A stretch of DNA of 64,000 nt from a virus. Taxonomy: Duplodnaviria > Heunggongvirae > Uroviricota > Caudoviricetes. The notes beneath the pieces were generated by a model that was not told where the DNA came from, ran no database searches, and saw only the letters and a program-made list of their open reading frames with translations. The stretch is from positions 15,284-79,283 of the IMG/VR virus record IMGVR_UViG_3300017778_003242; one strand, written 5' to 3'. A program made the position numbers and the translations under genes. Below, piece after piece: positions 5,653 through 62,527 of this stretch; position 1 is the first letter of the stretch, and each line of letters opens with the position of its first letter.

Positions 5653-5695
5653 TTAGGGCTTGACGGTCTGGCACGCGTTATGCTTCCATTCGTTC

Positions 5696-32622: not shown

Positions 32623-32923
32623 AGTCTTCCGCTTCCTTCAGGGCTTTCACGCGACCGGCGAGGGCGGCGTTGATGTGATCGAACGGAGGCGAACGGAGCT
32701 TCCGAACATGGTCGAGCAAGATGTACCCGGTTTCCTGATGGAAGACAAGGTCCACCGGAGTATCGTGAAAATACCAGATCGCCGGGCTTGGATTGACATA
32801 CGGCTTGGCCGCATGATCCCTGAAACGATCAGCGAGCGGGCGCGAGTTCTGCGCCAGTATCATCCCCGCCATGAGCGGGGCGCACGCTTCCCGAATCATG
32901 TGGTGCGTCTGGAAGGGCATCAT
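32558..32923 (-). CDS. hypothetical protein
   Basis: 121 aa. ATGA-coupled to thyX. Its 3' end overlaps the next gene by 65 nt. Confidence 0.4.
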   Translation of the reverse strand: MMPFQTHHMIREACAPLMAGMILAQNSRPLADRFRDHAAKPYVNPSPAIWYFHDTPVDLVFHQETGYILLDHVRKLRSPPFDHINAALAGRVKALKEAEDYEILRRETGDAQLDAPEVPSA

Positions 32924-33768
32924 AGTTCACCTCGTTGTTCCATCTGGTTGCGCAGCGATTGCCAACCGACAAAGTTTGCATAGCGACCGTACTTGCCGAG
33001 CGCATTCACGCCATGCGCCATGGCCTGATGCTCGATAGGAGAGGCGTGGGCAGGCTTCATGACGATGAGCCTGTCATAGAGCGCCACGTCCTCGTCCACT
33101 GTGCTGGGCTTGCCCTCGTGCGTCATATAGCTGACGCGGGCGCAGCGGGCCGCGCTGATCTTCTGCTTGATCACGTCGCTGTATTCCTGTTCGCTCGCGC
33201 GCACGTACGGCAGGCGCCATTGGCCGGGCTCAAGGAAGTTGATGCGATCGTACCAGTACGTGTCGGTCATGGCTTCGCGCATCTTCACCGCGAGCGCCCT
33301 GATCTCAGGCTGTGCTTCCTTGTGGTCGCGGAGCTGGAAGAAGTTGTCCCACTCGGTCGCCGTCACGATGACGCTGATGTGGGCGTACGGTTCGAGCAAG
33401 CGGTTCGCCGCCTGCTTGTGGAGGCCGAGCGCCACCAACTTCTCGACGTGCCCAATGGCATCTTCCATGGACGCGCGCCATTCGAGCTTCGCCAGCTTGA
33501 TCTCTTCGGGCGTCAGCTCGACATCCGCCTGCATACCCGACTGGTTGCGGCCCCAGTGTACGAGCATCGCCGGGTCCATGCGGATGTCCTCGATCATCTT
33601 CTTGACCGGGATCGCGCGCGACGACGATGCGTTGCGCGAGAAGACGCGATGCGTCATGAACTCCGCATGGATCAACCGCGGGTAGCGGAGCTGTAGCGTC
33701 CATATGGGCGGGGCTCCGTTCGGCTCTTTGAGCTGCGAACAGAGAATTACTTTTGCAGAGATGGTCAA
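32920..33768 (-). CDS. thyX: flavin-dependent thymidylate synthase ThyX
   Basis: FMTHRVFSRNASSSRA matches the ThyX (R)HRx7S signature with Thr replacing the first Arg. DNFFQLRDHKEAQPEIR matches the ThyX HFxxLRxxxxAQxEIR region. Confidence 0.75.
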   Translation of the reverse strand: MTISAKVILCSQLKEPNGAPPIWTLQLRYPRLIHAEFMTHRVFSRNASSSRAIPVKKMIEDIRMDPAMLVHWGRNQSGMQADVELTPEEIKLAKLEWRASMEDAIGHVEKLVALGLHKQAANRLLEPYAHISVIVTATEWDNFFQLRDHKEAQPEIRALAVKMREAMTDTYWYDRINFLEPGQWRLPYVRASEQEYSDVIKQKISAARCARVSYMTHEGKPSTVDEDVALYDRLIVMKPAHASPIEHQAMAHGVNALGKYGRYANFVGWQSLRNQMEQRGEL

Positions 33769-40992: not shown

Positions 40993-41886
40993 CTACTTGA
41001 CGTTGATGAAGGGCACAGCTTGGCCCGGCACCATCGTCGTGGGCAGTTTGCCGTCCCACTTCTCAGCGAGCGTCAGCTCGACGAGCTTGGGCGACGAGGC
41101 GATAGCTTCCGAGCGCGCCCGGATCGCCGCCGCTTCAGCATCGCCGCGGAGGCGGGTCTGCTTGGCATCAGCTTCGGCTTGGATCACGAGCATGTCCGCG
41201 TCGATCTGCGCCGTCTGCTTCTGTTGCTCGCGCTTCTGCACTTCGACTTGTGCCATCATGCGCGCTTCGACCGCGTTCTCGTAGGCGTCAGAGAACGAGA
41301 TGTCCTGAACCTGCACAGCCGACACGACGACCGGGTATCCCTTCAGCAGTTCCTTCAGCGCGATCGCGACATCAGCGTTGAACTTCGACCGTTGCTGGAT
41401 GACCGTCACCGCGTCGTAGCCGCCGAACACGTTCTTGACCGCCTCGACCGTCTTGGGGACGACGACCGTGGTGCGGAAGCGCTCGCGCGATCCGTATGTC
41501 TGGTAGATGTCCGAGATCGTCGCGTCGTCAGCCGGGATGGACCACGCCACGTTGAGCGCGATCTCCGCGGGCTGTTGGTCGCGCGAGTACGAGTTCATGC
41601 GGCTGTCGCCATCCTCTTTCGAGTATTGCCACGCAATCGGTTGCTCGCGCACGTCCATGATGCGGAAGTCGTCAACGAACGGCACTTTCAGGTTCAGGCC
41701 GGGCTTGGTGATGCCGACGAGCGCGCCGGTGCGAGTGTGGACCGCGCGTTCACCTTCGCCGACAGTGTAGAACGAATTGCAACCGGCGATCGTCAGCGTG
41801 AGGACGGTGACGACAGAGATCACTGCATTGCGGACGAGGCCGACGATGCGCTTGAATTTGAGGGCTTCTTCTTCTTCGTAGGTCAT
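40993..41886 (-). CDS. SPFH/band-7 (prohibitin/HflC-like) membrane protein
   Basis: N-terminal TM then an SPFH core (YTVGEGERAVHTRTGAL...) and a C-terminal coiled coil (QKREQQKQTAQIDAD...). AAGGAA SD before ATG 41886. Confidence 0.65.
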   Translation of the reverse strand: MTYEEEEALKFKRIVGLVRNAVISVVTVLTLTIAGCNSFYTVGEGERAVHTRTGALVGITKPGLNLKVPFVDDFRIMDVREQPIAWQYSKEDGDSRMNSYSRDQQPAEIALNVAWSIPADDATISDIYQTYGSRERFRTTVVVPKTVEAVKNVFGGYDAVTVIQQRSKFNADVAIALKELLKGYPVVVSAVQVQDISFSDAYENAVEARMMAQVEVQKREQQKQTAQIDADMLVIQAEADAKQTRLRGDAEAAAIRARSEAIASSPKLVELTLAEKWDGKLPTTMVPGQAVPFINVK

Positions 41887-42074
41887 TTTGGTTCCTTGAG
41901 CGTTACTGATGAGCAAGGTAGAGCAAGTGCCGTGCCACGCGCCTTGCACGCAGGGCATTCGTAGTCGTGAGGGTTAACGGCGACGCAGATCGCGTCGGGG
42001 TGTGTACGGTGAACCGGAGGCCCACCGTACATTCCGCTTTCCATGAAGGCGCGGATGTCTTCCCGACTGATCAT
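41883..42074 (-). CDS. small Cys-rich protein (64 aa)
   Basis: HDYECPACKARG zinc-ribbon-like motif. ATGA-coupled to the SPFH gene. Confidence 0.3.
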   Translation of the reverse strand: MISREDIRAFMESGMYGGPPVHRTHPDAICVAVNPHDYECPACKARGTALALPCSSVTLKEPK

Positions 42075-43594: not shown

Positions 43595-43671
43595 TGGTAC
43601 GAAGGGAAAGAATCGAACTTTCGACCTCGCGGTTATCAACCGCGCGCTCTTCCCAACTGAGCTACCCTCGC
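43595..43671 (-). tRNA. tRNA-Ile (anticodon GAU)
   Basis: Reverse complement reads GCGAGGGTAGCTCAGTTGGGAAGAGCGCGCGGTTGATAACCGCGAGGTCGAAAGTTCGATTCTTTCCCTTCGTACCA. D-arm GCTC/GAGC, anticodon stem CGCGG/CCGCG with loop TTGATAA, T-arm GAAAG-TTCGATT-CTTTC, encoded CCA. Confidence 0.7.
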
Positions 43672-44182
43672 AAACGGTTAGTCGCGAGACATGGTAATTC
43701 GCTTCGGACCCTTGGACTTGCGGGCGAGCGCGGCCAGAGGCTTCGCCGCGGGTTTCTGGGCGACGGCTTTCTTCTGACGGGACTTCTTCAGCATGGACAT
43801 GGGCAATACCCCTTGAAATGATGGCCCGCCCGTACGCCGGAGCGCAGAGGGACGGGGCGTTACCTTTACGTTGTCCCATGTCCATGGACGGAAGTCAAGA
43901 CTATCGGGCTGTGGGCCGATAAGGGCTGTTATCGGGCGATGGGCCTTACCCCCTGCGGAGGCTAGAAGCCTTTTAACCCCCGTAAGGGATAAATTTCTAA
44001 AATTTTTTATGAAATCAAGGGGCTAAGAGGCGGGGCTATAATATAAGTACCCCCGGTCTAATTTCCTACCCTCATACGAGCGTATAATGACTGGCGTAGT
44101 AAGGTTAATGACCCATGTTGGGGCATTACCCCCTGTTAGGGTTAACAAATCCCTAAGCGGTAAGGTTAATCGATCGTTAAGG

Positions 44183-44300
44183 TTAATAAATAATAAAAAT
44201 AATAAATAATTAATTATTTATTATTTATTAATGTTACATTACATACTGTTAATGTTACATGCTATGTATATACTATGTGTTAAGGTTAATAACATACTAA
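44183..44300. repeat. nearly pure A/T low-complexity tract with palindrome AATAAATAATTAATTATTTATT
   Basis: Roughly 120 bp almost devoid of G/C in a 60% GC genome. Contains a perfect 22-bp AT palindrome at 44201-44222 and flanking AAGGTTAAT motifs. Confidence 0.6.
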
Positions 44301-44654
44301 TGCACACACCATGCTGTATAGGTTAATTGTTATTAACCATGCTCTATATAAGGGGGCTTAAATAGAGGGGGCTTAGCAGTGGGTTAACCTTAACAGAAAG
44401 CCACATTCTGTTAAGGTTAATAATTTGCGAATTTCTGGTATGGTTAATAAAGACCCTCAAAAAATTAACCAAGAAAGTAAGGTTAACAAATCATGTTGAA
44501 AAATTAACCCTAACAATGGATTAATTTAGTACCTCACAATTAGATTAAATTCATTTGAAATAACTGCCAATATCCCGCTATTCCGATAAAGGTAAAGAAA
44601 CCCATCATCCCTAACAGTCGCTTAATAGTGATCATGAAATTCCCCTTGTGTGGT

Positions 44655-44686
44655 AAGCCCCCTCTTTAGGAGGGGGCTTAGCCTTT
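44655..44686 (-). terminator. terminator downstream of minus-strand gene 44686-44934
   Basis: AAGCCCCCTC-TTT-AGGAGGGGGCTT hairpin. Confidence 0.5.
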
Positions 44687-44934
44687 CATTTACCGATGCC
44701 GAACTGGGCGGCGAGATTGCCTAACGCTTGGTTAAACCAGTAGATGAATTCCGCTTCCGTCTTGATCGTGCGGCCCTTCATCTGGGCGAGGCGTTGGGCG
44801 CGTTTCAGAACGTACAGGATAGGCTCTTTACCCTTGTAACCGAGCCCTGCGGCGATCTCGTCAATCGCGGCTTTCGTGGCGCTTGCGCCCGGCTGAGTGG
44901 CGTCGTTCAGTTTGGTCCAGTAAGAGGTGGTCAT
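44686..44934 (-). CDS. hypothetical protein (82 aa), divergently transcribed from cassette 1
   Basis: ACGGAGA SD before ATG 44934. Shares the palindromic operator with the rightward genes. Confidence 0.45.
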   Translation of the reverse strand: MTTSYWTKLNDATQPGASATKAAIDEIAAGLGYKGKEPILYVLKRAQRLAQMKGRTIKTEAEFIYWFNQALGNLAAQFGIGK

Positions 44935-45007
44935 TTGCTGTCTCCGTTTTGATGAGTTAGTTATGCCATAGGCTTGCAGGGAATGCAAGCGCATAATGCA
45001 GAATTCT

Positions 45008-45027
45008 ACATTACAAATTTGTAATGT
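45008..45027. promoter_or_regulatory. operator palindrome ACATTACAAATTTGTAATGT (cassette 1, divergent)
   Basis: Perfect 20-bp inverted repeat followed by AATGCA(A)AA..GCTATTGCATATCC and SD AACGGAG. Confidence 0.55.
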
Positions 45028-45110
45028 TCAAAATGCAGAAAATGCAAAAAAGGCTATTGCATATCCGGCCAACCTATGCGAGAAAGGGTCATCAACAACG
45101 GAGACACCAA

Positions 45111-45293
45111 ATGCAAATCAACTACCGCCAGACAGACGAAGAAATCCGCCGCGAATGGGCGGGCGTCGAGCGCCGCGCGCCGATCACGGCAGAAACGGCT
45201 CCCAAAGCCGTCGTGAAGCGCGACCGCTTCGCTTGCGTGGTTGTGGCCGTGTTCGTGGCCGTCGCGATCCTCGGCGTTGTGGTGACGTTCTAA
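45111..45293 (+). CDS. small membrane protein (60 aa)
   Basis: ATG 45111 after CAACAACGGAGAC SD. C-terminal TM (FACVVVAVFVAVAILGVVV). Confidence 0.45.
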   Translation: MQINYRQTDEEIRREWAGVERRAPITAETAPKAVVKRDRFACVVVAVFVAVAILGVVVTF

Positions 45294-45454
45294 TGGACAC
45301 GGAAAACAGCCTTTACCTGCATGGCCGCAAGCCTACGCTGGGCGAGATCATGCGACAGCTCAAAATCGTCGAGAAAGTCTGCCAAGAGATTCGCGACGAA
45401 GAGACTTCCTTTCAACCCCGCGACCAATTCGCGGAATTGCTTTTCGAGGATTGA
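45293..45454 (+). CDS. small protein (53 aa)
   Basis: TAATG-coupled. MDTENSLYLHGRKPTLGEIMRQ... Confidence 0.35.
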   Translation: MDTENSLYLHGRKPTLGEIMRQLKIVEKVCQEIRDEETSFQPRDQFAELLFED

Positions 45455-45458
45455 TCAC

Positions 45459-45779
45459 ATGCCCGGAGATATGGAACTGATCGCCAGCGACGCGCGCGGA
45501 ATTTACATTCCGCAGCATGTGGCCGAAGCTTGCACGCTGGAGCCTATCAGGAAGACGCCGCAAAGCATCGCCCGGCTAGCCGTCAACGTGGCGACATGCC
45601 TAGAAGGGCCGGACGCCGAAAACTACTGGGAAGCATGGAGCGAGATTCTAGACCTAGCCTGCATCCGAGTCGGACGCGCGCGGTGGTCGCTCTATCAGGA
45701 CGGCGATTGCTGGGCAATTCGAATGTGTGCCCGCGCGCGGAAAGAAGCGGCCCACGCGTTTGGGTGGGATGTGGATTGA
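45459..45779 (+). CDS. hypothetical protein (106 aa)
   Basis: GAGGA SD before ATG 45459. Confidence 0.4.
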   Translation: MPGDMELIASDARGIYIPQHVAEACTLEPIRKTPQSIARLAVNVATCLEGPDAENYWEAWSEILDLACIRVGRARWSLYQDGDCWAIRMCARARKEAAHAFGWDVD

Positions 45780-45787
45780 AGCAAGAA

Positions 45788-45823
45788 CCATGCCAACCGC
45801 GAGGTCGGCATGGTTAATTTTTC
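45788..45823 (+). terminator. rho-independent terminator
   Basis: CCATGCCAACCGCGAGGTCGGCATGG hairpin + TTAATTTTTC. Confidence 0.6.
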
Positions 45824-45833
45824 TTCTCGGTTT

Positions 45834-45862
45834 GTTAACCTTAACAACCTATTAAGGTTAAC
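45834..45862. promoter_or_regulatory. TTAA-N7-TTAAG hairpin element (GTTAACCTTAACAACCTATTAAGGTTAAC), copy 1
   Basis: 11-bp inverted repeat conserved after several small genes. Matches the CtrA-box-like spacing TTAA-N7-TTAA. Confidence 0.45.
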
Positions 45863-45938
45863 AAATCATTAACGCGGAAAAATAGGTCGTCAATCCATTA
45901 TATCACAAAAATCCGACCGGGTCAAGAGGAAAAATGCA

Positions 45939-45958
45939 ACATTACAAATTTGTAATGT
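45939..45958 (+). promoter_or_regulatory. operator palindrome ACATTACAAATTTGTAATGT (cassette 2)
   Basis: Identical 20-bp palindrome. Downstream TTGCAT -35-like element and AACGGAG SD. Confidence 0.55.
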
Positions 45959-46035
45959 AGCAGAAAAATGCAAAAAGCCTATTGCATATCCTGATCAATG
46001 TGCTATCTCTATTGCATCAACAACGGAGCGACCAA

Positions 46036-46134
46036 ATGGAAACGGTTCTGAAAATCGCCTTTTTCTTCTTCCCTTCGGAAGAACTCAGCAACCGGATTTG
46101 CGCGGTGCGCTTTCACAAAAAATGGAGCCGCTAA
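46036..46134 (+). CDS. tiny protein (32 aa)
   Basis: ATG 46036 after the cassette-2 SD. Hydrophobic FFFF stretch. Below the ORF-track cutoff. Confidence 0.25.
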   Translation: METVLKIAFFFFPSEELSNRICAVRFHKKWSR

Positions 46135-46135
46135 C

Positions 46136-46396
46136 ATGAAACTGGGACCGAAAGACAAGGTTATTGCGAAGGGCCATTCGCTCGTGGTTTTCGAATGCAC
46201 GGACATGGGTCCGGACGATGGCAATCGTTATTTTGTCTGCTTCTCCAATGAGAACGGCAAACACTCGTCCAGCCTCGGCTGCGCCTTGTCCATGGGCTTC
46301 ATGGACGACAACGGAAGCGGCCAAGGCGATTTCAAGTTTACGCCTGTCCAGATGATTTTCCTCGAACGCACGGCGGACTCGCTCCCCGACTATTAG
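46136..46396 (+). CDS. hypothetical protein (86 aa)
   Basis: ORF. No motif. Confidence 0.4.
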   Translation: MKLGPKDKVIAKGHSLVVFECTDMGPDDGNRYFVCFSNENGKHSSSLGCALSMGFMDDNGSGQGDFKFTPVQMIFLERTADSLPDY

Positions 46397-46412
46397 TCAA
46401 GCGAATAGTGCA

Positions 46413-46432
46413 ACATTACAAATTTGTAATGT
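46413..46432 (+). promoter_or_regulatory. operator palindrome (cassette 3) with TTGACC-N17-CATAAA promoter
   Basis: GCAACATTACAAATTTGTAATGTTGC, then TTGACCTATGCAGTGAGCTATGGCATAAAGGGTCATCAACAACGGAG. Confidence 0.55.
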
Positions 46433-46509
46433 TGCACTTTTTTCGAATTATCCAGTTGACCTATGCAGTGAGCTATGGCATAAAGGGTCATCAACAACGG
46501 AGAACGTCA

Positions 46510-46713
46510 ATGACCAAGAAACACTTCATCGCCATCGCGAAGCGCATGGCCGACCACCGCTTCAACCTCTCGAAAATCTCGGACAAGGCGACGCGTGACG
46601 CAAGCCTGAACGTCCTCGACGACACGATTCGCGATCTGGCGATTACTTTCGGAGACGTTAACCCGAACTTCGATTTCCGCCGCTTCGCCGACGCCTGCGG
46701 TTTGCCCAACTAG
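46510..46713 (+). CDS. hypothetical protein (67 aa)
   Basis: ATG 46510 after AACGGAGAAC. Confidence 0.45.
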   Translation: MTKKHFIAIAKRMADHRFNLSKISDKATRDASLNVLDDTIRDLAITFGDVNPNFDFRRFADACGLPN

Positions 46714-46726
46714 GGAAAGGAAGAAT

Positions 46727-46762
46727 TAACCCTGCGCCCCCACCGCGCAGGGTTAATTTTTG
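46727..46762 (+). terminator. rho-independent terminator
   Basis: TTAACCCTGCGCCCCCACCGCGCAGGGTTAATTTTT. Confidence 0.6.
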
Positions 46763-46772
46763 GCCTCGCGGC

Positions 46773-46801
46773 GTTAACCTTAACAGCCTATTAAGGTTAA
46801 C
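46773..46801. promoter_or_regulatory. TTAA-N7-TTAAG hairpin element, copy 2
   Basis: GTTAACCTTAACAGCCTATTAAGGTTAAC. Confidence 0.45.
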
Positions 46802-46877
46802 AAACCATTAACGCGGAAAAAATGCTTTTAGCCTCAGAATATCATATAAAGCGAGCCGGGTCAATAAGAAAAATGCA

Positions 46878-46897
46878 ACATTACAAATTTGTAATGT
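46878..46897 (+). promoter_or_regulatory. operator palindrome (cassette 4) with TTGACG-N17-CATAAA promoter
   Basis: Near-identical duplicate of cassette 3. Confidence 0.55.
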
Positions 46898-46974
46898 AGC
46901 ACTTTTTTCGAATTATCCTGTTGACGTATGCAGAGAGCTATGGCATAAAGGGTCATCAACAACGGAGAACTGCA

Positions 46975-47241
46975 ATGACAATGTTTTCGGGCCAAGTTTC
47001 GGTTTCAGTGTTCCAATGCCTGACCATCGCGTCCGGGCTGGATATGTACCGGAAATTCAAAATGATGCCGAACCGCAACTATACGCCGAAAGCCATGATG
47101 GACGCGGCGTCGCGGATCACGGGCCAGAAATTCAAGGCTCGCGATTACGAAGGCGCTGCAATCGCCCTGCGGGCGCTGGCGGAAAAGACCAAGAACGAAA
47201 TCCACGCTGGCCAGCATGAAGGGAACTCGATCACCCCTTAA
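46975..47241 (+). CDS. hypothetical protein (88 aa)
   Basis: ATG 46975 after AACGGAGAAC. N-terminal hydrophobic segment. Confidence 0.45.
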   Translation: MTMFSGQVSVSVFQCLTIASGLDMYRKFKMMPNRNYTPKAMMDAASRITGQKFKARDYEGAAIALRALAEKTKNEIHAGQHEGNSITP

Positions 47242-47271
47242 GCCCGGCCCCGGCTCGGGGACGGGAGTTGA

Positions 47272-47303
47272 CCATGGCCCGAAAGGGCCATGGTTAATTT
47301 TTT
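47272..47303 (+). terminator. rho-independent terminator
   Basis: CCATGGCCCGAAAGGGCCATGG + TTAATTTTTT. Confidence 0.6.
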
Positions 47304-47313
47304 GCCTCAATCC

Positions 47314-47342
47314 GTTAACCTTAACAGCCTATTAAGGTTAAC
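47314..47342. promoter_or_regulatory. TTAA-N7-TTAAG hairpin element, copy 3
   Basis: CGTTAACCTTAACAGCCTATTAAGGTTAAC. Confidence 0.45.
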
Positions 47343-47418
47343 AACTCATTAACCGCCGAAAATAGGTCGTCAATCCATTATATCACAAAAATCCGGGCCT
47401 GTCAAGTAGAAAAATGCA

Positions 47419-47460
47419 ACATTACAAATTTGTAATAATGCAAAATAGCTATTGCATATC
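47419..47460 (+). promoter_or_regulatory. operator cassette 5 (ACATTACAAATTTGTAAT + ATGCAAAATAGCTATTGCAT)
   Basis: Variant of palindrome 1 followed by second palindrome ATGCAAAATAGCTATTGCAT. Confidence 0.5.
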
Positions 47461-47572
47461 CTCCAATCATGTGAGATACCTTGCACATCGAGAGAGGGGA
47501 GCGGGACAAGCAACCGCCCACCGGAAGCCCCGGCAGCTCCCCTCTCCCGACCAAAAAAATGGAGACGAAATC

Positions 47573-47839
47573 ATGAGCCGCGACCTGATCAATATCGACG
47601 CAGTGGCCCCCGCACATTGGGCCTGCTATTTCTTCAATGACGACCCGGAAGGCCTGTCTGATGCGGATATCGCCGCCGCTGATGCCTTCATCGCTCGCGT
47701 GGACGCTGGAGCCCCGGCGCACATGGACGAAGAGGAAGAGCATTATTTTGCGCATGGCCATCAGGTCGCGCTGCTTTGCCCCGAAGCGCCGCGCCTCGGT
47801 TGCACTCTGGCCATGTATTACTTTTTGAAGGAGGCATAA
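47573..47839 (+). CDS. hypothetical acidic protein (88 aa)
   Basis: GGAGA SD before ATG 47573. Confidence 0.45.
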   Translation: MSRDLINIDAVAPAHWACYFFNDDPEGLSDADIAAADAFIARVDAGAPAHMDEEEEHYFAHGHQVALLCPEAPRLGCTLAMYYFLKEA

Positions 47840-47841
47840 GC

Positions 47842-48138
47842 GTGGAACACTCAACGCAAATGGTTCTCGTCCTGCTTCATACGCGGATTCCGGGCAATGA
47901 GAATTGCGCTCGCATGACCCTCGATCGCCCGGCCACTAGGCGAGCCGCTGAGCGCTACGCGCGCGACGCGTGGGATTTGGTCGCGACGCTCGACGATCTC
48001 GCCCACCGCTTCGCGTGGGACTATAACCTGCCTGTCCTGTTGGCCCGTTCCATGCTGGTCACATGCTGTCAGGAAATTTACAAGCGGGAGGGGTTTGACT
48101 TCAATCAACCCCTCGACGTGATCCGGGAGGTTTTCTAG
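47842..48138 (+). CDS. hypothetical protein (98 aa)
   Basis: GTG start 7 nt after GAAGGAGG SD. Confidence 0.4.
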   Translation: MEHSTQMVLVLLHTRIPGNENCARMTLDRPATRRAAERYARDAWDLVATLDDLAHRFAWDYNLPVLLARSMLVTCCQEIYKREGFDFNQPLDVIREVF

Positions 48139-48383
48139 TGGCGCAATCGTTTGGTGGACGCCTGCGTCCAATCATTGAAGGGGTATACACGGAAGGCGCA
48201 CAAGCGCCTTCCAAGCCTCCCTTTGAGTGTGAGCGAACCGGCTGGACGCCCGCCGACCTATTGCCGCGATGGGTCGCGGATATCGGCTGGATTATCGGGC
48301 TATTGCTGCGCAAGATATGGCTTTACGTTTGTGCGCCGACCGGCGCACTGGCGTTCGGGATCGCCTTCCTGCATCTGAGCTAG
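48138..48383 (+). CDS. small membrane protein (81 aa)
   Basis: GTG start overlapping the upstream stop. TMs (GWIIGLLLRKIWLYVCAPTGALAFGIAFL). Confidence 0.35.
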   Translation: MAQSFGGRLRPIIEGVYTEGAQAPSKPPFECERTGWTPADLLPRWVADIGWIIGLLLRKIWLYVCAPTGALAFGIAFLHLS

Positions 48384-48465
48384 GGGTTTCTCTCCGTTTC
48401 CCCTAGTGACACTGGCCCGGCTTGCCACGCGCGCGAGCCGGGCCACTTTTTTGAAATAATGCAAA

Positions 48466-48490
48466 ATAGCTATTGCATACCCGGCTATTC
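48466..48490 (+). promoter_or_regulatory. operator cassette 6 (ATGCAAAATAGCTATTGCAT only)
   Basis: Second-palindrome copy without the ACATTACAAA element, upstream of gene 48531. Confidence 0.4.
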
Positions 48491-48530
48491 TATGCCATCA
48501 ATAGCAGGTCAGCAAAAACGGAGATGCGAC

Positions 48531-48806
48531 ATGGCTTTGACCTTCACCATCGACCAGTTTAACGAGTACATCGAGAATGGCCCGTACGCATGGCCCGGCG
48601 GATATCCGCTCTACTTCGTCACGCGTGACGGTGAGGCGCTGTCATTTGACGCCGTTCTCGCCAATATCGAGTACATTCGCGAGGCAATCCAGCAGGACTA
48701 TAGCACTGACTGGCGCGTGATCGCTTGTGAGATCAATTGGGAAGACGCCGACCTGATTTGCTCCCACACTGGCAAGCGAATCGAGTGCGCGTACCCGCAG
48801 GACTAA
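48531..48806 (+). CDS. hypothetical protein (91 aa)
   Basis: ATG after AAAAACGGAGATG. Confidence 0.45.
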   Translation: MALTFTIDQFNEYIENGPYAWPGGYPLYFVTRDGEALSFDAVLANIEYIREAIQQDYSTDWRVIACEINWEDADLICSHTGKRIECAYPQD

Positions 48807-48812
48807 GGAAAG

Positions 48813-48850
48813 GTTAACCGCGGCCCGCAAGGGTCGTGGTTAATTTTTCG
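48813..48850 (+). terminator. rho-independent terminator
   Basis: GGTTAACCGCGGCCCGCAAGGGTCGTGGTTAATTTTTC. Confidence 0.6.
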
Positions 48851-48859
48851 CCGCCGCGC

Positions 48860-48907
48860 GTTAACCTTAACAGCCTGTTAACCTTACCGCCCTGTTAAGG
48901 TTAACAA
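48860..48907. promoter_or_regulatory. TTAACC/TTAAGG hairpin element, copy 4 (expanded)
   Basis: GTTAACCTTAACAGCCTGTTAACCTTACCGCCCTGTTAAGGTTAAC. Confidence 0.4.
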
Positions 48908-48981
48908 CTCATTAACGCCGAAAAAATGGTTTTAGCCTCAGAATATCATAGCCCTGTCAAAGTGTCAAGGCATAAAATGCA

Positions 48982-49021
48982 ACATTACAAATTTGTAATA
49001 ATGCAAAATAGCTATTGCATA
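48982..49021 (+). promoter_or_regulatory. operator cassette 7
   Basis: ACATTACAAATTTGTAATAATGCAAAATAGCTATTGCAT, identical to cassette 5. Confidence 0.5.
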
Positions 49022-49070
49022 TCCTCCAATCATGTGGCATTGTCTCTTTATCAGAAACGGAGTTGATCAG

Positions 49071-49253
49071 ATGACCTACCTCGAAACCCGCGCCGCCGTC
49101 TCCCGCGCTCTTGAAGAGCCGGGCGTTGAACACGTCAATTCGGATGCCTTCTTCGCGGCGTGCGACAAGTGGGATATCGAGCCCGGCGATCTGGAAGACG
49201 CCCTGTTCGAGTGTGGCGTGCAAGAGGCGGAAGACCGCCGCCACTTTGACTAG
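49071..49253 (+). CDS. hypothetical acidic protein (60 aa)
   Basis: ATG after AAACGGAG. Confidence 0.4.
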   Translation: MTYLETRAAVSRALEEPGVEHVNSDAFFAACDKWDIEPGDLEDALFECGVQEAEDRRHFD

Positions 49254-49315
49254 ACTGGAGCCCCGAAAGCTCTGGAGCCCCTGAACCGGGCTCAACTGGA
49301 CTGGCCCGCAGTGGC

Positions 49316-49345
49316 TACCCGCCCTTAACCATGGGGCGGGTTTTT
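49316..49345 (+). terminator. rho-independent terminator
   Basis: CCCGCCCTTAACCATGGGGCGGG + TTTTTC. Confidence 0.55.
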
Positions 49346-49369
49346 CTTAGTTAATGCCTATTAACCAAG

Positions 49370-50200
49370 AAACTATGGTTAATGGCCCATTAACCTTAAC
49401 ACGCCGTTAACCTTAACGCCGTTAACCTTAATAGCCTGTTAAGGTTAACGGAGCATGAAAATTAATCGACGCGTCGGATTTATCGGTTATTAACCTTGAA
49501 GTCCCCCGCGGCTTCTCAAAGCTGAAGTCCCCCTCGGCCTTGAAGTCCCCCACGGCCTCTTGATTAACCTTAACAGATTAACCTTAATAGCCTGTTAAGG
49601 TTAATAAGAAATGTCTTATTAACATGCACGGCTCGCATCAGAATTTTCTTATGAATATATTAACCTTAACGCCTTGAAGTCCCCCTCGGCCTCTCGCAAA
49701 ATTAACCTAAACGGCGCTAATTAACCCTAATTTATAGCCGATTAAGGTTAATTAGTATACTTATAGACGAGGTTATACGGGCTGTTAGGGTTAATTTTAC
49801 GTTATACGGCGTTAAGGCTAATTAGCGCTCCGCCCTCCCGGCCTTATGGCTAATATAGCTCGACCATTAACCTTCCGCCCTATGGCGTCCAGTGTGAGGT
49901 CGCAAAAGGGGCATTTGGGCCTTTATTTATAAGGGTTTTTGACAATCACTACCTATTAACCTTCCTCTCATCTTAAAGTGCTGAGAAAATATTATGGATA
50001 ATGGAGTGTCCCAAAAGGGGATTGGCACCCTATTATAAACCCTAATAGGCTTAATTAGGGTGATGCCACCCTACTTATACGGGGACGGTAACCCTAACCG
50101 CCCTCCCCGCCCTGAGCTGGCTCTTCACCTATCTTAGGAACGTTATCGCGCACCGCCTTTTAACCTAAACGCTGCCCAACCTCTTAAGACGGGGTGACCC
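49370..50200. repeat. noncoding region densely packed with TTAACC(T)TAA / TTAACCAT motifs
   Basis: More than 25 copies of TTAACC or GGTTAA in about 830 bp. Includes tandem GTTAACCTTAA units and TTAACACGCCGTTAAC, a perfect TTAA-N7-TTAAC. Confidence 0.6.
49497..49692 (+). repeat. iteron-like direct repeats TGAAGTCCCC-NNGGCCT (x4)
   Basis: Copies at 49497, 49523, 49541 and 49674. Adjacent CGACGCGTCG palindrome and AT-rich stretch. Confidence 0.55.
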
Positions 50201-56428: not shown

Positions 56429-56566
56429 CGGTTAACCACGCGATCGGCAGTAAGGTTAAAGCGCCCGCGATCCGCGGCCATTAACCCTAACACTCACCGT
56501 CCGGCCACGTGGCACGGCGCTTGCATTGTGTTGTCTGGGCACATCAACGTGTCCCGATATTTGACA

Positions 56567-57433: not shown

Positions 57434-57795
57434 TGGGCCAGCATCAGGTTTACCGCGCGAAGAGATCGACGCAGCGATGGCTTGAAGGCGCACCGGACTA
57501 TGTGCTGGCGTGCTTTGACGGCGGCAAAGGATTCGCGGATCGTTACACCGTGATCATCGGCGGACGTTTTCAGGAAGGCGGACCGCACTATCGCGACGCA
57601 TGGCTACACGTGGCCCACATTGGCCCGGCCAGCTATGGGTCACATCCGGGCGGCTGGGCAAGCATGACGGCAAACGAGGCGGCGACGTTCCGCTACAATT
57701 TCCGGCACAAGAAAATGAAGTGGAGCGATTTGCCCGAATGTATACGCGGCACAATCGTTGCATTTGGAAAAGAAGAGACGGAGCAAGCAGCATAA
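57433..57795 (+). CDS. hypothetical protein (120 aa)
   Basis: Real C-terminal part of the longer R-rich ORF 57103-57795. ATG 57433 overlaps the upstream TAA. Confidence 0.4.
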   Translation: MGQHQVYRAKRSTQRWLEGAPDYVLACFDGGKGFADRYTVIIGGRFQEGGPHYRDAWLHVAHIGPASYGSHPGGWASMTANEAATFRYNFRHKKMKWSDLPECIRGTIVAFGKEETEQAA

Positions 57796-58412
57796 TGGCC
57801 AACCTCAGAAGCACCCGCGACGTGAAGACAGGCAAGAGCCTGAACCTCGGATTTGCGACGCGCGCGACGCGTCTGGCGGACGGCACGCTTAGCGTGGTCC
57901 ATCATGCGACGGAGATCGTTCGCATCGGCTTGTTCGGATCATACGGCCACAACGTCAAGATTGACGCGGCGGGCTGGCGGTCGCGCACGACGCTCGAACG
58001 GATCGACCATGCGCTGGAATGTGAAGGCGTCGCGGCGCGCGTCTCAGATCACGGCGCGACCGTCGGCTGGCGTGTACACTTCGGCCCGGCGTCGATGGCG
58101 TTCTGCGACGGCATGGTCCTGCGGATCGTTATGGACGCGGTCGAGATCGTCGAGCCGGGCCGCGACTATCCCATTCCTGCGGATCAACTTGAGGCGCTTG
58201 CGACGCTCGGCCAACTGGTCAAGCGTGGGCATGAGCTGAACCGGGACGCTATCAACGCGTTTTGTTCCTTCACCGGGCGGCGCGTGTACTTCGGCGCGGC
58301 GGACGCGTTGCGCACGATGCGACGCAAGGCGCGGCATCACGCGCCAGATTTTCGTTTTGCCCTTCCCGCGATCTTGCGCGCGGAAGGTATGTTAGGCCGA
58401 AAGGCCACCTAG
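57795..58412 (+). CDS. hypothetical protein (205 aa)
   Basis: ATG 57795 overlapping the upstream TAA. MANLRSTRDVKTGKSLNLGF... Confidence 0.45.
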   Translation: MANLRSTRDVKTGKSLNLGFATRATRLADGTLSVVHHATEIVRIGLFGSYGHNVKIDAAGWRSRTTLERIDHALECEGVAARVSDHGATVGWRVHFGPASMAFCDGMVLRIVMDAVEIVEPGRDYPIPADQLEALATLGQLVKRGHELNRDAINAFCSFTGRRVYFGAADALRTMRRKARHHAPDFRFALPAILRAEGMLGRKAT

Positions 58413-58900
58413 TTGCTCAAGGGAGGGAACTCTAACCGCGCGTGAACGGCGCGGGCTCGAACTGGTAACAGACTGCAAAGTCGGATTAGGGCGCAAGCCT
58501 GAAAACTCTGCCCTCCCGTCATGATCGCCCGCAAGGCTAGAGCATGATTAGGAACGGAACAATTCGGCACGGTTCACATTTTTCTGGCGTAGCGTGGTAT
58601 AGGTATTGCATGGGTAGTTGGCTGACGGATGGACGCAAGGGCCGAAGTTTCTGGTCCGGGTTTTTCTGGTTCACAAAGAAACGGCGACGAAAGAGCCGAA
58701 GGGTTTTATAGGACGCGCCGCTGCAACGGCTAGGGGAAAGTGATCGCCCCGAACGAAGGCCCGCAAGGCTGAAAAGATGGCTAGGGGTCAAAGGGAGTCG
58801 GGTAGCGTGGAGGGGTAACCCGCTGAAGCGTCCGGCTCCCTCCCGAGCCCCGGCCATTAATCTTAACACCGGCACGTTTCACGACGACGTTTCACACTGT
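58413..58900 (+). ncRNA. candidate structured noncoding RNA (GNRA-hairpin-rich, ORF-free)
   Basis: 490-nt gap with no credible ORF. Repeated GGCGCAAGCC / GCCCGCAAGGC GCAA-tetraloop hairpins each followed by GAAAA. Distant complementary GGGAGGGA ... TCCCTCCC segments at the two ends. Repeated TTTTTCTGGTTCACA. Confidence 0.3.
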
Positions 58901-59003
58901 CAGAAACTCGCGCGTTTTTCTGACACTTTTTTATTGATCCGTTAGGACCGGCGTGGCATGACAATCGCAAGAGACAACGCAGAGAGTTTTTGGAGCTATC
59001 GTT

Positions 59004-60494
59004 ATGACACAGTGGTCCGAATTTCAGGAAGCCATCTTTGCCCACGTCGAGAACCCGGAAGGCGGGAACTTGATCGTCGAGGCAGTCGCCGGGTCCGGCA
59101 AGACCACGACCATCGTCGAGGCAACGAAGCGTTGCGGCGACGCGCGCGTGATCTTCCTCGCCTTCAACAAGTCAATCGCAACGGAGCTGAAGTCGCGCGG
59201 CGTGAACGCCCGGACGTTTCACTCGCTCGTCTTCAATCCGGCGTTGAACCTTCGCGGCGTTCGCGACGCGACGACGGATAAAATGTACAAGCTGACCGAC
59301 TCGGACGCTGGTCACTGGGAAGATAAGGACGCGCGCCTGTACGCGAAATTTGTGCGCAAGCTTGTCGGCCTTGCCAAAGGCGTCGGCATCGGTTGCTTGC
59401 TGGAGGATACCGAATCGGAATGGGTCGCGCTGGCGGACCATCACGATATGGAACTGGAGAGCGACGCAGCGGACTTCGCGACGGCCATCGAATGGTCGCG
59501 CAAATTCCTGCGCATCTCGAACGCGTCCAAAATGGTGGACTTTGACGACATGCTTTATCTGTGCGTCAAGGAAGGCGTGAGCCTCCCCAAATTCGACTGG
59601 GTTTTTGTTGACGAGGCGCAAGATACGAACCCGATTCAGCGCGCGATCCTTCGCAAGATCATGCGCGACGGCTCACGCCTTGTCGCGGTCGGCGATCCTG
59701 CGCAAGCGATCTATGGCTTTCGCGGCGCGGACTCGGAAAGCCTCGCCATGATCGCCTCGGAATTCAACGCCACAACGCTCCCCCTTAGCGTCTCCTATCG
59801 CTGCGCCCAATCCGTGGTCAACTACGCCCGCCAATGGGTCGGCCACATCCTGCCCGCGTCTACGGCCCCGGAAGGCACCGTTGACACAATGGCAGACTGG
59901 ACGCTGGATATGCTCGCCCCGGCTGACCTTGTCGTCTGCCGCAATACCAAGCCCCTGATCGCCCTCGGCTACAAAATGCTGAAGGCGCGCAAGCCCGTCC
60001 GCATCCGCGGGAAAGAGATCGGCGAGGGTCTGGTCAAGCTGATCGAAAAGCAGCGCGCGAAAGGTATCGACCGGCTGGTGGAAAAGCTTTCCGCTTTCCG
60101 CGACCGCGAAGTCGAGAAAGCTATCGCCGCGAAGCAACCGGCCAAGGCGGCGGCGGTTGCTGACAAGGTGGACGCGATCCTTTGCCTGATCGACTCGCTG
60201 GACGAAAACGCGCGCACCATCCCGGCGCTTCTGGACATCATCCGCACGCTTTTCGAAGACGTGCGCAACGCGACCACGCTCTGCACCATTCACAAGTCGA
60301 AAGGACTTGAGGCGACGCGCGTGTTCTGGCTTGACCGCTCCCTGTGCCCGTCCAAATGGGCGACGCAGGAATGGCAGAAGAAGCAAGAGCGGAATCTCTG
60401 CTACGTCGCAGTGACGCGCGCCAAGTCGGCGCTGGTCATCGTCGAGAGCGACCGCCTGCTAGAAGACGCCCCCAAGGCGAAGGCGGCGGCATGA
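59004..60494 (+). CDS. UvrD/PcrA-like superfamily I DNA helicase
   Basis: AGSGKTTT Walker A, VFVDEAQD Walker B, IHKSKGLEA and VAVTRAKS late motifs. 496 aa. Confidence 0.75.
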   Translation: MTQWSEFQEAIFAHVENPEGGNLIVEAVAGSGKTTTIVEATKRCGDARVIFLAFNKSIATELKSRGVNARTFHSLVFNPALNLRGVRDATTDKMYKLTDSDAGHWEDKDARLYAKFVRKLVGLAKGVGIGCLLEDTESEWVALADHHDMELESDAADFATAIEWSRKFLRISNASKMVDFDDMLYLCVKEGVSLPKFDWVFVDEAQDTNPIQRAILRKIMRDGSRLVAVGDPAQAIYGFRGADSESLAMIASEFNATTLPLSVSYRCAQSVVNYARQWVGHILPASTAPEGTVDTMADWTLDMLAPADLVVCRNTKPLIALGYKMLKARKPVRIRGKEIGEGLVKLIEKQRAKGIDRLVEKLSAFRDREVEKAIAAKQPAKAAAVADKVDAILCLIDSLDENARTIPALLDIIRTLFEDVRNATTLCTIHKSKGLEATRVFWLDRSLCPSKWATQEWQKKQERNLCYVAVTRAKSALVIVESDRLLEDAPKAKAAA

Positions 60495-61139: not shown

Positions 61140-61370
61140 CGGCTATGAAGTAAGATTAATGGCGTTGGCGGTGAAATCCCGCGTGTTAATCAGGGCCGGG
61201 AAGTAGTGTTAACACCTGTACCCCGGCCCGCCCAACACAAGAAATCGCAGTAAGGTTAACATGACACCGCCCTCATGTTAAGATTAACGGCGATCGTTGC
61301 TATTAACCCTAACGGCAGTTTCGTTTCATTAACCTTAATTCGCGTTAACCATAACGCCGCGCCGCGATCT
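61140..61370. repeat. second TTAACC / TTAACCAT motif cluster
   Basis: GTAAGGTTAAC, ATGTTAAGATTAAC, TATTAACCCTAAC, CATTAACCTTAAT, CGCGTTAACCATAACG. Confidence 0.5.
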
Positions 61371-61694: not shown

Positions 61695-62084
61695 ATGAGC
61701 GACAACTGGCTTTCCACCGATGAGCAGATCAGGGAAGTCTGCGACCAAGCCGTGAAGGAATACGGCGGTTCCGACATCCTCTCTATCCGCTGCCCCACCA
61801 AGGAAATTCAGGCCAAGGTGCGCAAGTACCTTGACAGCAAACGCGGCGGCAAGACGATCGACACATATGTCGGCGCGCTGAACGACAACCGGGCTGGAAT
61901 GATCGATACGGGGCATGGCACCCGGTCAAAAACCCGGTCCAAGAAAGGGGATAGTACCCCTATCGAATTGGAGGGGGAGGGGGATGACACCCCGGATCAA
62001 GACATTGACCATATCCTCGATCAGAAGCACTATGCGCAGATGGCGGATTTGACGCCGGACGATGATTTGGACGGGCTCGTATGA
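61695..62084 (+). CDS. hypothetical acidic protein (129 aa)
   Basis: ORF. Confidence 0.4.
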   Translation: MSDNWLSTDEQIREVCDQAVKEYGGSDILSIRCPTKEIQAKVRKYLDSKRGGKTIDTYVGALNDNRAGMIDTGHGTRSKTRSKKGDSTPIELEGEGDDTPDQDIDHILDQKHYAQMADLTPDDDLDGLV

Positions 62085-62527
62085 CCACGATTGTCTACTC
62101 TCGGAAGCACAAGACAATGGCGGGCGATTCCCAGCTCACCTATGGGTCTACGAGAGAGATGTCGATGCGGAAGGTATTCCGCAGGCCCAAGGACGGCGCG
62201 CTCATAGGCGTGGCTGGGATAGCCTCCCTAGCGACCAAGATCGTCGAGTGGTTCATGAACGATGAAGAGTATGGGGAGCGCCCCCCGTTCGGGATCGAGA
62301 GCAAGCAAGCCCAAGCGATCCTCGTGCGCCCGGACGGCACGGTCGAGTTCCATGACCTTTATGGATACCATCACGTCGATGGGGACTTCTTTGTCGGCGG
62401 CACTGGCGCTGACGTGGCGCTGGGCGCGCTCGAAATGGGGGCGACACCCCAACAGGCGGTGCGGATCGCGGCCAAGTACGACACCAAGACCGGCGGCAAG
62501 GTCCGTTACGTCAAGCTCAAGAAGTGA
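62081..62527 (+). CDS. HslV-like N-terminal-nucleophile (proteasome beta-like) peptidase
   Basis: MTTIVYSRKHKTMAGDSQLTYGSTREMSMRKVFRRPKDGALIGVAGIASLA aligns with E. coli HslV [53 protein letters not shown]. C-terminal FFVGGTGADVALGALEMG matches [20 protein letters not shown]. Confidence 0.6.
   Translation: MTTIVYSRKHKTMAGDSQLTYGSTREMSMRKVFRRPKDGALIGVAGIASLATKIVEWFMNDEEYGERPPFGIESKQAQAILVRPDGTVEFHDLYGYHHVDGDFFVGGTGADVALGALEMGATPQQAVRIAAKYDTKTGGKVRYVKLKK

Follow-up and report, generated by a model that had tools for sequence, protein, structure and literature searches.

What does a phage keep in several hundred nucleotides in which no gene has been annotated? The question is raised by a gap of 590 nt (58413-59003) in a 64,000-nt stretch of Caudoviricetes DNA, hereafter the window (positions 15,284 to 79,283 of the IMG/VR virus record IMGVR_UViG_3300017778_003242), where it is bounded by the TAG stop codon (58410-58412) of a 270-aa gene (57600-58412, + strand) and by the ATG (59004) of a UvrD-type helicase gene (59004-60494, + strand). 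An initial annotation, made from the letters of the window, had described the first 490 nt or so of this gap as free of open reading frames (ORFs) and as a candidate structured RNA. Our comparison with related phages leads to another answer: the gap probably holds not one RNA but a mosaic accessory locus with which an early or middle operon ends, and we put the probability of this reading at roughly 0.6. Two structured RNA modules, A and C, stand on either side of an unannotated but conserved small ORF, and regulatory DNA follows them.

The long gap is specific to the lineage of the window, since in the phages PaMx25, MMDA13 and DoCa3 only 50-90 nt precede the helicase gene. The helicase protein is 59-60% identical to those of the Pseudomonas phages PaMx25 and NP1 (Queuovirinae, Nipunavirus) and of related phages, and the cultured phages with a related helicase infect Pseudomonas, Xanthomonas, Variovorax and Sphingomonas. 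The gap region recurs in two contigs of IMG/VR, namely L004, which is ~98% identical to the window, and L005, which is 84% identical over the gap and whose upstream gene is only distantly related to that of the window. More divergent relatives (L061, L062, L065, L066, L068 and L069) come from Logan assemblies and were found via helicase homologues with 66-84% protein identity; in them a gene-free stretch of 410-790 nt precedes the helicase, the contig of L065 ending 446 nt upstream. Together with the window these contigs make up the nine sequences of the module alignment. The family is small, with seven distinct sequences, all uncultivated, and those that inform on module A (n = 4) and on module C (n = 7) are all related to each other.

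Modules A and C and the small ORF between them

Module A (58421..58517, + strand, ~97 nt) is a four-helix-junction RNA in the consensus fold of the alignment. Its closing helix P1 joins GGGAGGG at 58421-27 with CCCTCCC at 58511-17, the last pair turning from G-C to C-G in L061 and L062; P2 (58436-41 with 58449-54) is variable; P3 (58471-82) is a GACT-GCAA-AGTC hairpin whose GCAA loop becomes GCGA in L061; and P4 (58489-58500), which is GGGC-GCAA-GCCT in the window, reads GGAC-GCGA-GUCC in L005 and is enlarged in L061 and L062. No change at all is seen in the junction strands AACTCTAAC and GGGCTCGAACTGGTAACAGACTGC, and the invariant nucleotides of the junction number 24. Over the four distinct sequences, 97.7% of the cells of the 22 pairs are indeed paired, against 35-53% when the partners are slid; five of the 22 pairs are changed on both sides, and the covariation score was reached by none of 500 shuffles. 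Moreover, the module folds better than its shuffles, with z = -2.6 to -2.7 for the minimum free energy (MFE). Its nucleotide identity to the relatives is 79-93%, equal to that of the helicase gene, and the protein encoded directly upstream is ~30% identical or unrelated among the same relatives: the gene ahead of A is Kyano_Gp96-like in L005 and L061, and an unrelated 131-aa gene in L062. In every context module A begins 0-9 nt past the stop codon (9 nt in the window), a distance too short for a promoter belonging to the module itself.

Module C (58712..58848, + strand, ~137 nt) is a multi-helix RNA which begins directly after the stop codon of the small ORF, and in L069 directly past the stop codon of an unrelated 147-aa gene. 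Five or six helices make up the consensus of module C, among them C1 (58717-20 with 58727-30), C2 (GGGG/CCCC, 58733-36 with 58747-50) with the invariant loop AAAGTGATCG, the GCC..GGC hairpin C3 (58759-70) with a conserved GCAAGG, C4 (GGGAGTCGG/CCGGCTCCC, 58793-58801 with 58832-40) and C5 (GGG-GTAA-CCC, 58812-21). Over the seven distinct sequences 92.1% of the cells of its 27 pairs are paired (38-53% with slid partners), nine pairs are changed on both sides, and again 0 of 500 shuffles reached the score. A 14-nt loop, AAAGUGAUCG, is invariant in the seven sequences together with its flanks (GGAAAGTGATCGCC), and that it stays so beside saturated synonymous sites points to constraint at the nucleotide level; the closing pair of this hairpin changes from G-C to C-G, which as protein would mean two non-synonymous substitutions. 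No reading frame is conserved through module C. A second ORF considered there, in the LxESDRxE frame, was rejected: the block is nucleotide-invariant without any excess of third-position changes, frameshifting indels interrupt it, and the only periodic frame contains a conserved TGA. A covariance model of module C (R1), run over 497 kb of collected sequence, recovered the seven known copies and no others.

In both modules G-U pairs account for 12-13% of the paired cells, which makes the structures specific to the + strand. The initial annotation had proposed covariation across related phages as a check, and this check came out in favour of structure, with compensatory pairs in A (5) and in C (9). 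Compensatory changes on one strand, the generic mark of a structured RNA, are thus found in both, in a sample that is small and made of related sequences, and on such comparative grounds modules A and C are shown to be under selection at the RNA level.

Downstream of module A lies hairpin B1 (58519..58547, + strand, TCATG...CATGA), with GCCCGCAAGGCT at its apex. The stem covaries, being TCATG/CATGA in the window, TCATG/CGTGG in L005, TCGCT/AGCGA in L061 and TCGCGC/GCGCGA in L062, and the apical part is missing from L061 and L062; past B1, consensus folding of the block called 'B' gave no robust structure. The leader of the small ORF follows (58548..58609, + strand) and comprises a conserved purine-rich block, ATTAGGAAMGGA..GGCACGG, and a tract rich in U. 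Its Shine-Dalgarno-like AGG (58601-03) stands 5-7 nt ahead of the ATG; the relatives have AAGGA there, 5-6 nt ahead of the ATG in most of them, and in L061 the distance to the TTG is 10 nt. A pairing of the leader with the ribosome-binding site or the first codons looked suggestive by eye and was dropped, being inconsistent across the relatives.

The small ORF itself (58610..58711, + strand) has 33 codons, MGSWLTDGRKGRSFWSGFFWFTKKRRRKSRRVL*, and is the reason why the region cannot be called ORF-free: no long ORF is conserved in 58413-59003, but this short one is conserved in frame. In fact, an intact protein-coding gene at this place in related phages had been named beforehand as an observation that would speak against a structured RNA, and for part of the region such a gene exists, the ORF being intact in all the relatives having that part, that is in L004, L005, L061 (with a TTG start), L062, L065, L066 and the partial L068. 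It encodes 31-33 residues across six distinct sequences. The product in the window is very basic and rich in Trp and Phe, with a tail that, by its composition, would be of the arginine-rich, RNA-hairpin-binding type; the products in L062 and L066 are MGSFLTDGRKRRSFWSGFFWSMKRRRRKSWF and MAIWFKDGRKHRSWFSGWLWNCKKGFKRSWP. Its synonymous sites are saturated (proportion of synonymous differences, pS, 0.72-1.07; of non-synonymous ones, pN, 0.10-0.43), pN/pS is 0.10-0.35 in most pairs, the differences at the three codon positions stand as 96:118:255, so that third positions take 255/469, and serine codons switch between AGT and TCG. A three-base periodicity is found only within 58609-58710. With its intact frame, its start codon and ribosome-binding site, its synonymous excess and this periodicity, the ORF has the sequence characters of a protein-coding gene, and we take it to encode a microprotein.

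Gene callers missed this ORF in the relatives, save for a fragment at the end of L068. No homologue of the microprotein was found in PHROGs, Pfam, PDB, a word-indexed set of 5.8 billion proteins or 1.84 billion representative proteins, and tblastn gave no match in a cultured-phage genome collection. Other coding or signal candidates around it did not survive comparison. A longer ORF of 55 codons from 58544 is not conserved, L062 having a stop codon directly upstream of its ATG. The antisense ORF, which the initial annotation had described as low-complexity (58537-58875, - strand, 112 aa), is not conserved; 1-nt indels and an 18-nt insert disrupt it even in L004, ~98% identical to the window. 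A simple scan also proposed a terminator-like hairpin with a T run at 58639-58665, inside the small ORF, where the T run encodes FFW (Phe-Phe-Trp); it is probably not a terminator, and attenuation within the micro-gene at this place is possible. A call of 'ORF-free structured RNA' made from a single sequence can therefore conceal a coding micro-gene, and only the comparison with relatives told the coding parts from those constrained at the RNA level.

As for the region as a whole, its GC content is lower than that of coding DNA (0.525-0.56 against 0.60-0.65 in the flanking DNA), as had been stated, and its + strand is G-rich, with a local GC skew of up to +0.29. The abundance of GNRA-type hairpins was also rightly noticed: five strict ones (stems of at least 3 bp) are seen against 1.26 expected, a number reached in 8 of 1000 shuffles. 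The three related hairpins singled out by the initial annotation are present (58489-58505, 58527-58542 and 58759-58776, the third corresponding to C3), but two of them are CGCAA pentaloops closed by only 3 bp and are not kept in the relatives. The exact 12-mer GCCCGCAAGGCT occurs twice, in B1 (58527-58538) and in module C (58759-58770), and CGCAAGSCTGAAAA is common to P4 of module A (58492-58505) and module C (58762-58775); these repeats, which are not retained in L005, L061 and L062, may come from recent conversion or represent a shared binding site.

Modular layout and the tRNA mimic of the relatives

The set of modules varies between close relatives, which carry A + ORF + D, C + D or A + ORF + C, D being a tRNA mimic. 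Module A together with the 'B' block is present in the window, L004, L005, L061 and L062 and absent from L069, while L065 is cut inside B and L066 has only the 3' half of B. Module A is never seen without the small ORF and always lies upstream of it. Module C is present in the window, L004, L005, L061, L066, L068 and L069 and absent from L062 and L065, in which D stands directly 3' of the small ORF. Module D is absent from the window and L005 and present in all the others of the nine. What remains in the window is a deletion scar (58847..58848): at this point L004, L061, L066, L068 and L069 have ~130-155 nt, and compared with the 98%-identical L004 the window shows a clean loss of D. A cassette-like locus whose parts are exchanged among close relatives would lend itself well to a natural experiment.

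Module D (L004:3700-3835, L061:2708-2840, L062:2726-2855, L065:172-300, L066:2710-2845, L068:241-372 and L069:884-1035) is a permuted tRNA mimic composed of a T-arm, a closed acceptor-like stem, a D-arm, a conserved GGGTTACTGGTAAACGG and a long 3' hairpin, and ten of its pairs have changes on both sides. Against the Rfam family YrlA (RF02553) it gives six sub-threshold matches, of 28.7-42.6 bits where the gathering score is 69, in L004, L061, L062, L065, L066 and L068; the alignment shows these arms in L069 too. Six of the seven loci have a sigma-54-type promoter box for D, TGGCAT-N5-TGCA, ~12 nt upstream of it; in L004, which has none, D would therefore be part of one A-to-D transcript. No YrlA or tRNA-like match was obtained in 58300-59100 of the window at E <= 10 or elsewhere in the window at E <= 1, and ARAGORN reported nothing in the gap, nor in L004, L005 and L009.

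Besides these modules, some relatives have a 49-nt element E, GCGGTAGCYATCAGACRGTCGCGCCCGGCGRC..AACCGCACCGGGC, with a covarying hairpin and pseudoknot potential. Its placement differs, within the leader of the small ORF in L005 (L005:3515-3563) and between C and D in L066 (L066:2634-2685); it has no Rfam match and looks like a small mobile RNA cassette.

The searches mark the limits of the family rather narrowly. Helicase relatives of <= 64% identity (L070-L072) have none of the elements, and the upstream regions of 79 further IMG/VR helicase loci (41-60% protein identity) are without the modules, the sigma-54-type boxes and the operator described in the last section. BLASTN searches of the window region, L061 and L069 against cultured phages gave no match except one 31-nt chance match. 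Exact-block scans of IMG/VR found only L004 and L005 besides chance matches; for example, the 16-mer GACGAAAGAGCCGAAG gave 48 matches of which nhmmer confirmed none. A similar scan of JGI metagenomes returned only the contig already known from IMG/VR as L004, and the GTDB genomes gave 0 matches to the module C block and the module A block.

Proposed roles and rival readings

In the reading that we prefer, module A, the leader, the small ORF and module C would be the transcribed tail of the upstream operon, whose nearest sigma-54-type boxes stand at 56510 and 56933, and the transcript would end at a terminator near 58933; this is expected because no promoter box lies between the upstream stop codon and that terminator. 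Module A most likely serves as a cis-acting, aptamer-like leader, which would bind a protein or a ligand and so set the translation of the microprotein, because it is always accompanied by the small ORF, lies upstream of it and has an aptamer-like architecture with its 24 invariant junction nucleotides; what it senses could be a ligand, a host protein or the microprotein itself. Like riboswitches and ribosomal-protein leaders it is a closed multi-helix junction with invariant junction nucleotides, ~90 nt before a ribosome-binding site, but it matches no known class and has no conserved alternative pairing with that site. Module C, for its part, is most likely an autonomous stable RNA domain of an accessory RNA set that would act on host RNA-handling proteins, because it is indifferent to the gene upstream and linked to the place of the tRNA mimic, with which it would share one transcript in L004. 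The phage of the window has lost the tRNA-mimic module D.

Several points weigh against such a reading. Transcript ends, processing and translation are all inferred from sequence; the sequences are few and related, four for A and seven for C, so that shuffle controls can overstate significance. L066 carries the small ORF without module A, and consensus folds across the relatives contain no conserved switch structure joining A to the ribosome-binding site. Module C in the window folds no better than its shuffles (z = -0.2 to -0.3), and its support is therefore comparative, not thermodynamic. Finally, no Rsr/TROVE, RtcB or enhancer-binding protein was found among the ~30 window ORFs tested, and for want of Rsr and RtcB the link to Y-RNA biology comes through neighbourhood only.

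The explanation that we rank second, possible but on the unlikely side, takes A, C, the microprotein and the tRNA mimic of the relatives as an accessory 'RNA island' acting in trans, in which A would be no cis-regulator but, like C, a processed stable RNA, and the whole would offer decoys or scaffolds to host proteins engaged in RNA repair, quality control or tRNA-targeting defence. The variation of module content between close relatives, that is a cassette-like turnover, fits this explanation equally well in several respects. In addition, A and C both start directly after the stop codons of unrelated genes, the tail of the microprotein would suit the binding of RNA hairpins, and phage non-coding RNAs (ncRNAs) derived from 3' untranslated regions (3'UTRs) are known (PMC10914365). 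The likeness of D to YrlA, a bacterial Y RNA-like tRNA mimic (RF02553; Chen et al. 2014, PMC4201824) to which related RNAs are known in phages, points the same way, for the locus of the relatives has the T-arm, the closed acceptor-like stem and the D-arm in the YrlA order and with heavy covariation. However, the window is without D, the matches of the relatives do not reach the gathering score, and described Y RNAs contain nothing that corresponds to modules A and C. A gene for Rsr (Ro60/TROVE) on the same strand within ~4 kb, as is the criterion for YrlA, was sought with Pfam among the flanking ORFs and 20 larger window ORFs and no TROVE domain was found, nor was RtcB among the window ORFs tested. 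The motif GNCGAAN0-1G, a putative Rsr contact of YrlA, is not conserved in the locus: by eye the window has GCCGAAG at 58641 and 58695 and GACGAAAG at 58686, all inside the small ORF, two of the three lie in a repeat, and none is kept in L061, L065 and L066. Moreover, A never occurs without the small ORF, a point that favours the cis-acting leader. Doubtful as it is, a further extension may be formulated, in which the interchangeable RNA cassettes (A, C, E and the YrlA-like mimic) and the microprotein, expressed from sigma-54-type promoters, would form ribonucleoprotein particles that hijack or blunt host RNA repair or quality control (Rsr, PNPase, RtcB) or tRNA-targeting defences. If it were true, A and C would be the founding members of new RNA families with protein partners. 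More generally, RNAs of phages that imitate tRNA or attach to RNA-surveillance proteins of the host are candidate agents of counter-defence and of host take-over.

The remaining explanations fare worse. A single structured RNA of ~490 nt closed by GGGAGGGA...TCCCTCCC, be it a ribozyme, a degenerate group I intron or a retron-like ncRNA, as the initial annotation had suggested, drew its appeal from the enriched GNRA hairpins and the complementary 8-mers at both ends; it is already contradicted, and scarcely credible now. Each of the two arms pairs locally, GGGAGGG with 58511-17 and TCCCTCCC (58837-44) inside module C, and the terminal pairing is not conserved, GGGAGGG having no 3' partner like TCCCTCCC in L005, L061 and L062. 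The middle third is coding (102 nt), operator and repeat DNA takes up the last 50 nt, the modules occur separately in the relatives, and the region as a whole folds no better than its shuffles, with z = -0.27 for the + strand and z = +1.26 for the - strand. An Rfam scan, another of the checks named beforehand, returned no family for the gap at the gathering score or at E <= 10, and none for modules A, B and C in the relatives; matches to RNase P P1 (7.1 bits), Yfr10 (19 bits, on the terminator) and SMAD5-AS1 are chance or terminator matches. A ribozyme-like element finds no support: covariance models of self-cleaving ribozymes, ROOL, GOLLD, HEARO, RNase P and tmRNA gave chance-level matches only in the gap. 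A group I intron is further opposed by the complete upstream gene and the complete helicase, with no exon halves, and a retron by the lack of any reverse transcriptase domain in the ten ORFs around the gap. What stands of the proposed structured RNA is thus modules A and C, with their compensatory changes and nucleotide invariance.

It is also quite improbable that the conserved non-coding blocks act as DNA, for instance as a replication origin or a protein-binding array beside the helicase, with the hairpins incidental. A replication gene does adjoin the region, the operator 11-mer, the CGTTTCAC repeats and the inverted repeat downstream are true DNA motifs, and the + strand has its GC skew of +0.29; yet the compensatory changes preserve pairing in A and C, the G-U pairs tie the structure to one strand, GNRA loops remain GNRA loops when they change (GCAA to GCGA), and some relatives do without A or C, whereas the downstream DNA motifs are constant. 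Barely tenable, finally, is the absence of any function, with recent common descent and chance hairpins in GC-rich DNA as the whole explanation. The family is certainly small, closely related and known from metagenomes only, and the folding energies of B and C are unremarkable, but A and C are 58-93% identical, with invariant blocks, in lineages in which the adjacent ORF has reached saturation at its synonymous sites and another gene has taken the place of the upstream one, and the pairs changed on both sides are far above the slid-partner controls.

How does the locus compare with other phage RNAs? By the models searched, the window region is a member of no known RNA family, and YrlA, the nearest, fits only the lost module D. 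The large ornate RNAs ROOL and GOLLD are phage-associated, multi-helix and GNRA-rich and often lie beside tRNAs, and the present locus is likewise phage-borne, multi-helix, GNRA-rich and beside a tRNA-like element; the differences are that neither model matches at E <= 10 and that A and C are ~100-140 nt, separate, and split by a coding ORF. In the lambda N/boxB system an arginine-rich peptide goes with a GNRA-like hairpin, and hok-like type I toxin mRNAs have a transmembrane-helix product. A small basic peptide beside GCAA/CGCAA-loop hairpins, in a structured mRNA with a tiny ORF, recalls both as a lead only, for N is a far longer peptide, a transmembrane helix like that of the toxins is missing, the relatives do not keep the repeated hairpins, and no antisense RNA is evident. 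By analogy, A and C resemble in kind the orphan structured motifs of phage UTRs. Known UTR-derived ncRNAs such as ncRNA1 and ncRNA2 of PAK_P3 and the 5'UTR RNAs of phiKZ (PMC10914365) are also structured RNAs without a promoter of their own at phage mRNA ends and conserved within a lineage; the present locus has no sequence relation to them, is known from sequence alone, and adds a micro-ORF and, in the relatives, a tRNA mimic. What appears new here is the combination of lineage-specific phage UTR RNAs with a micro-gene, its significance limited by the tiny uncultivated family; if real, it amounts to two orphan structured RNA motifs and one microprotein missed by gene callers and protein databases.

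Regulatory DNA downstream and phage-wide motifs

By its sequence motifs, the segment 58848-58900 is DNA-level regulatory sequence and not RNA structure. It contains TTAATCTTAAC (58857..58867, + strand), a copy of the 11-mer TTAAYCTTAAC, which with at most one mismatch has 37 copies in the window against 0.44 expected. These are clustered in intergenic DNA, often as convergent pairs 16 nt apart, and lie at 44135-44514, 45835-45861, 46774-46800, 47315-47341, 48861-48904, 49390-49821, 50160, 56481, 58857, 61277-61355, 20375 and 21718. Such a distribution is the signature of a dimeric DNA-binding protein, for which the 11-mer would be a phage-wide operator. At the 58857 site the CTTAA core is invariant in all the relatives, as CCTTAAC/T in most and as TCTTAAC in the window and L004, and TTAACCTTAAC is a candidate binding site for a protein. 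Two direct repeats of CGTTTCAC, 13 nt apart, follow (58875..58895, + strand), with one to three copies at the same place in the relatives; the repeat is not enriched across the window (5 against 2.9 expected) and would thus be a local DNA site. Most of the operator repeats lie in a stretch of ~6 kb, 43900-50200, which otherwise has short ORFs only and is adjoined by a tRNA-Ile (GAU) gene (43595-43671, - strand); this stretch could be an early or regulatory region in which many small genes lie, or hold further non-coding elements.

Next comes an intrinsic-terminator-like hairpin (58898..58933, + strand) with a 9-bp stem, GTCAGAAAC..GTTTTTCTGAC, and then TTTTTT. Its MFE of -10.3 kcal/mol (z = -3.05) and its U run are those of a stable intrinsic terminator, and a simple terminator scan missed it probably due to the 10-nt loop. 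The hairpin is kept in L004, L061, L062, L065 and L066 and missing from L005, L068 and L069. Behind it, and kept in all the relatives, stands the sigma-54-type promoter box TGGCATGACAATCGCA (58954..58969, + strand; -24 GG, -12 GC, in the spacing TGGCAC-N5-TTGCW), 35 nt upstream of the helicase ATG and a putative promoter of that gene. Matches to the sigma-54 consensus TGGCAY-N6-BGCW number 13 in the window, where 1.57 would be expected, and each has the orientation of the genes around it; they are at 5669, 37531 (-), 41922 (-), 43495 (-), 45780 (-), 50955, 51256, 52135, 53776, 54699, 56510, 56933 and 58954. These boxes suggest RpoN-type promoters as the candidate drivers of the early and middle operons of the phage; among the ~30 window ORFs tested, neither an enhancer-binding ATPase nor another sigma-54 activator was found. 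Sigma-54 dependence in a phage would be unusual but not unheard of, being reported for phage YuA in work cited in PMC10914365.

The window as a whole is a phage genome, its - strand carrying the tail, tape-measure, portal-type and baseplate genes and its + strand the early or replication genes. Some accessory genes may also be mentioned: the four loci 62081-62527 (+), 40993-41958 (-), 32920-33768 (-) and 3657-5567 (+) encode, in matching order, an HslV-family peptidase (PHROG 1040), an SPFH/Band 7 protein, ThyX and a class II ribonucleotide reductase.

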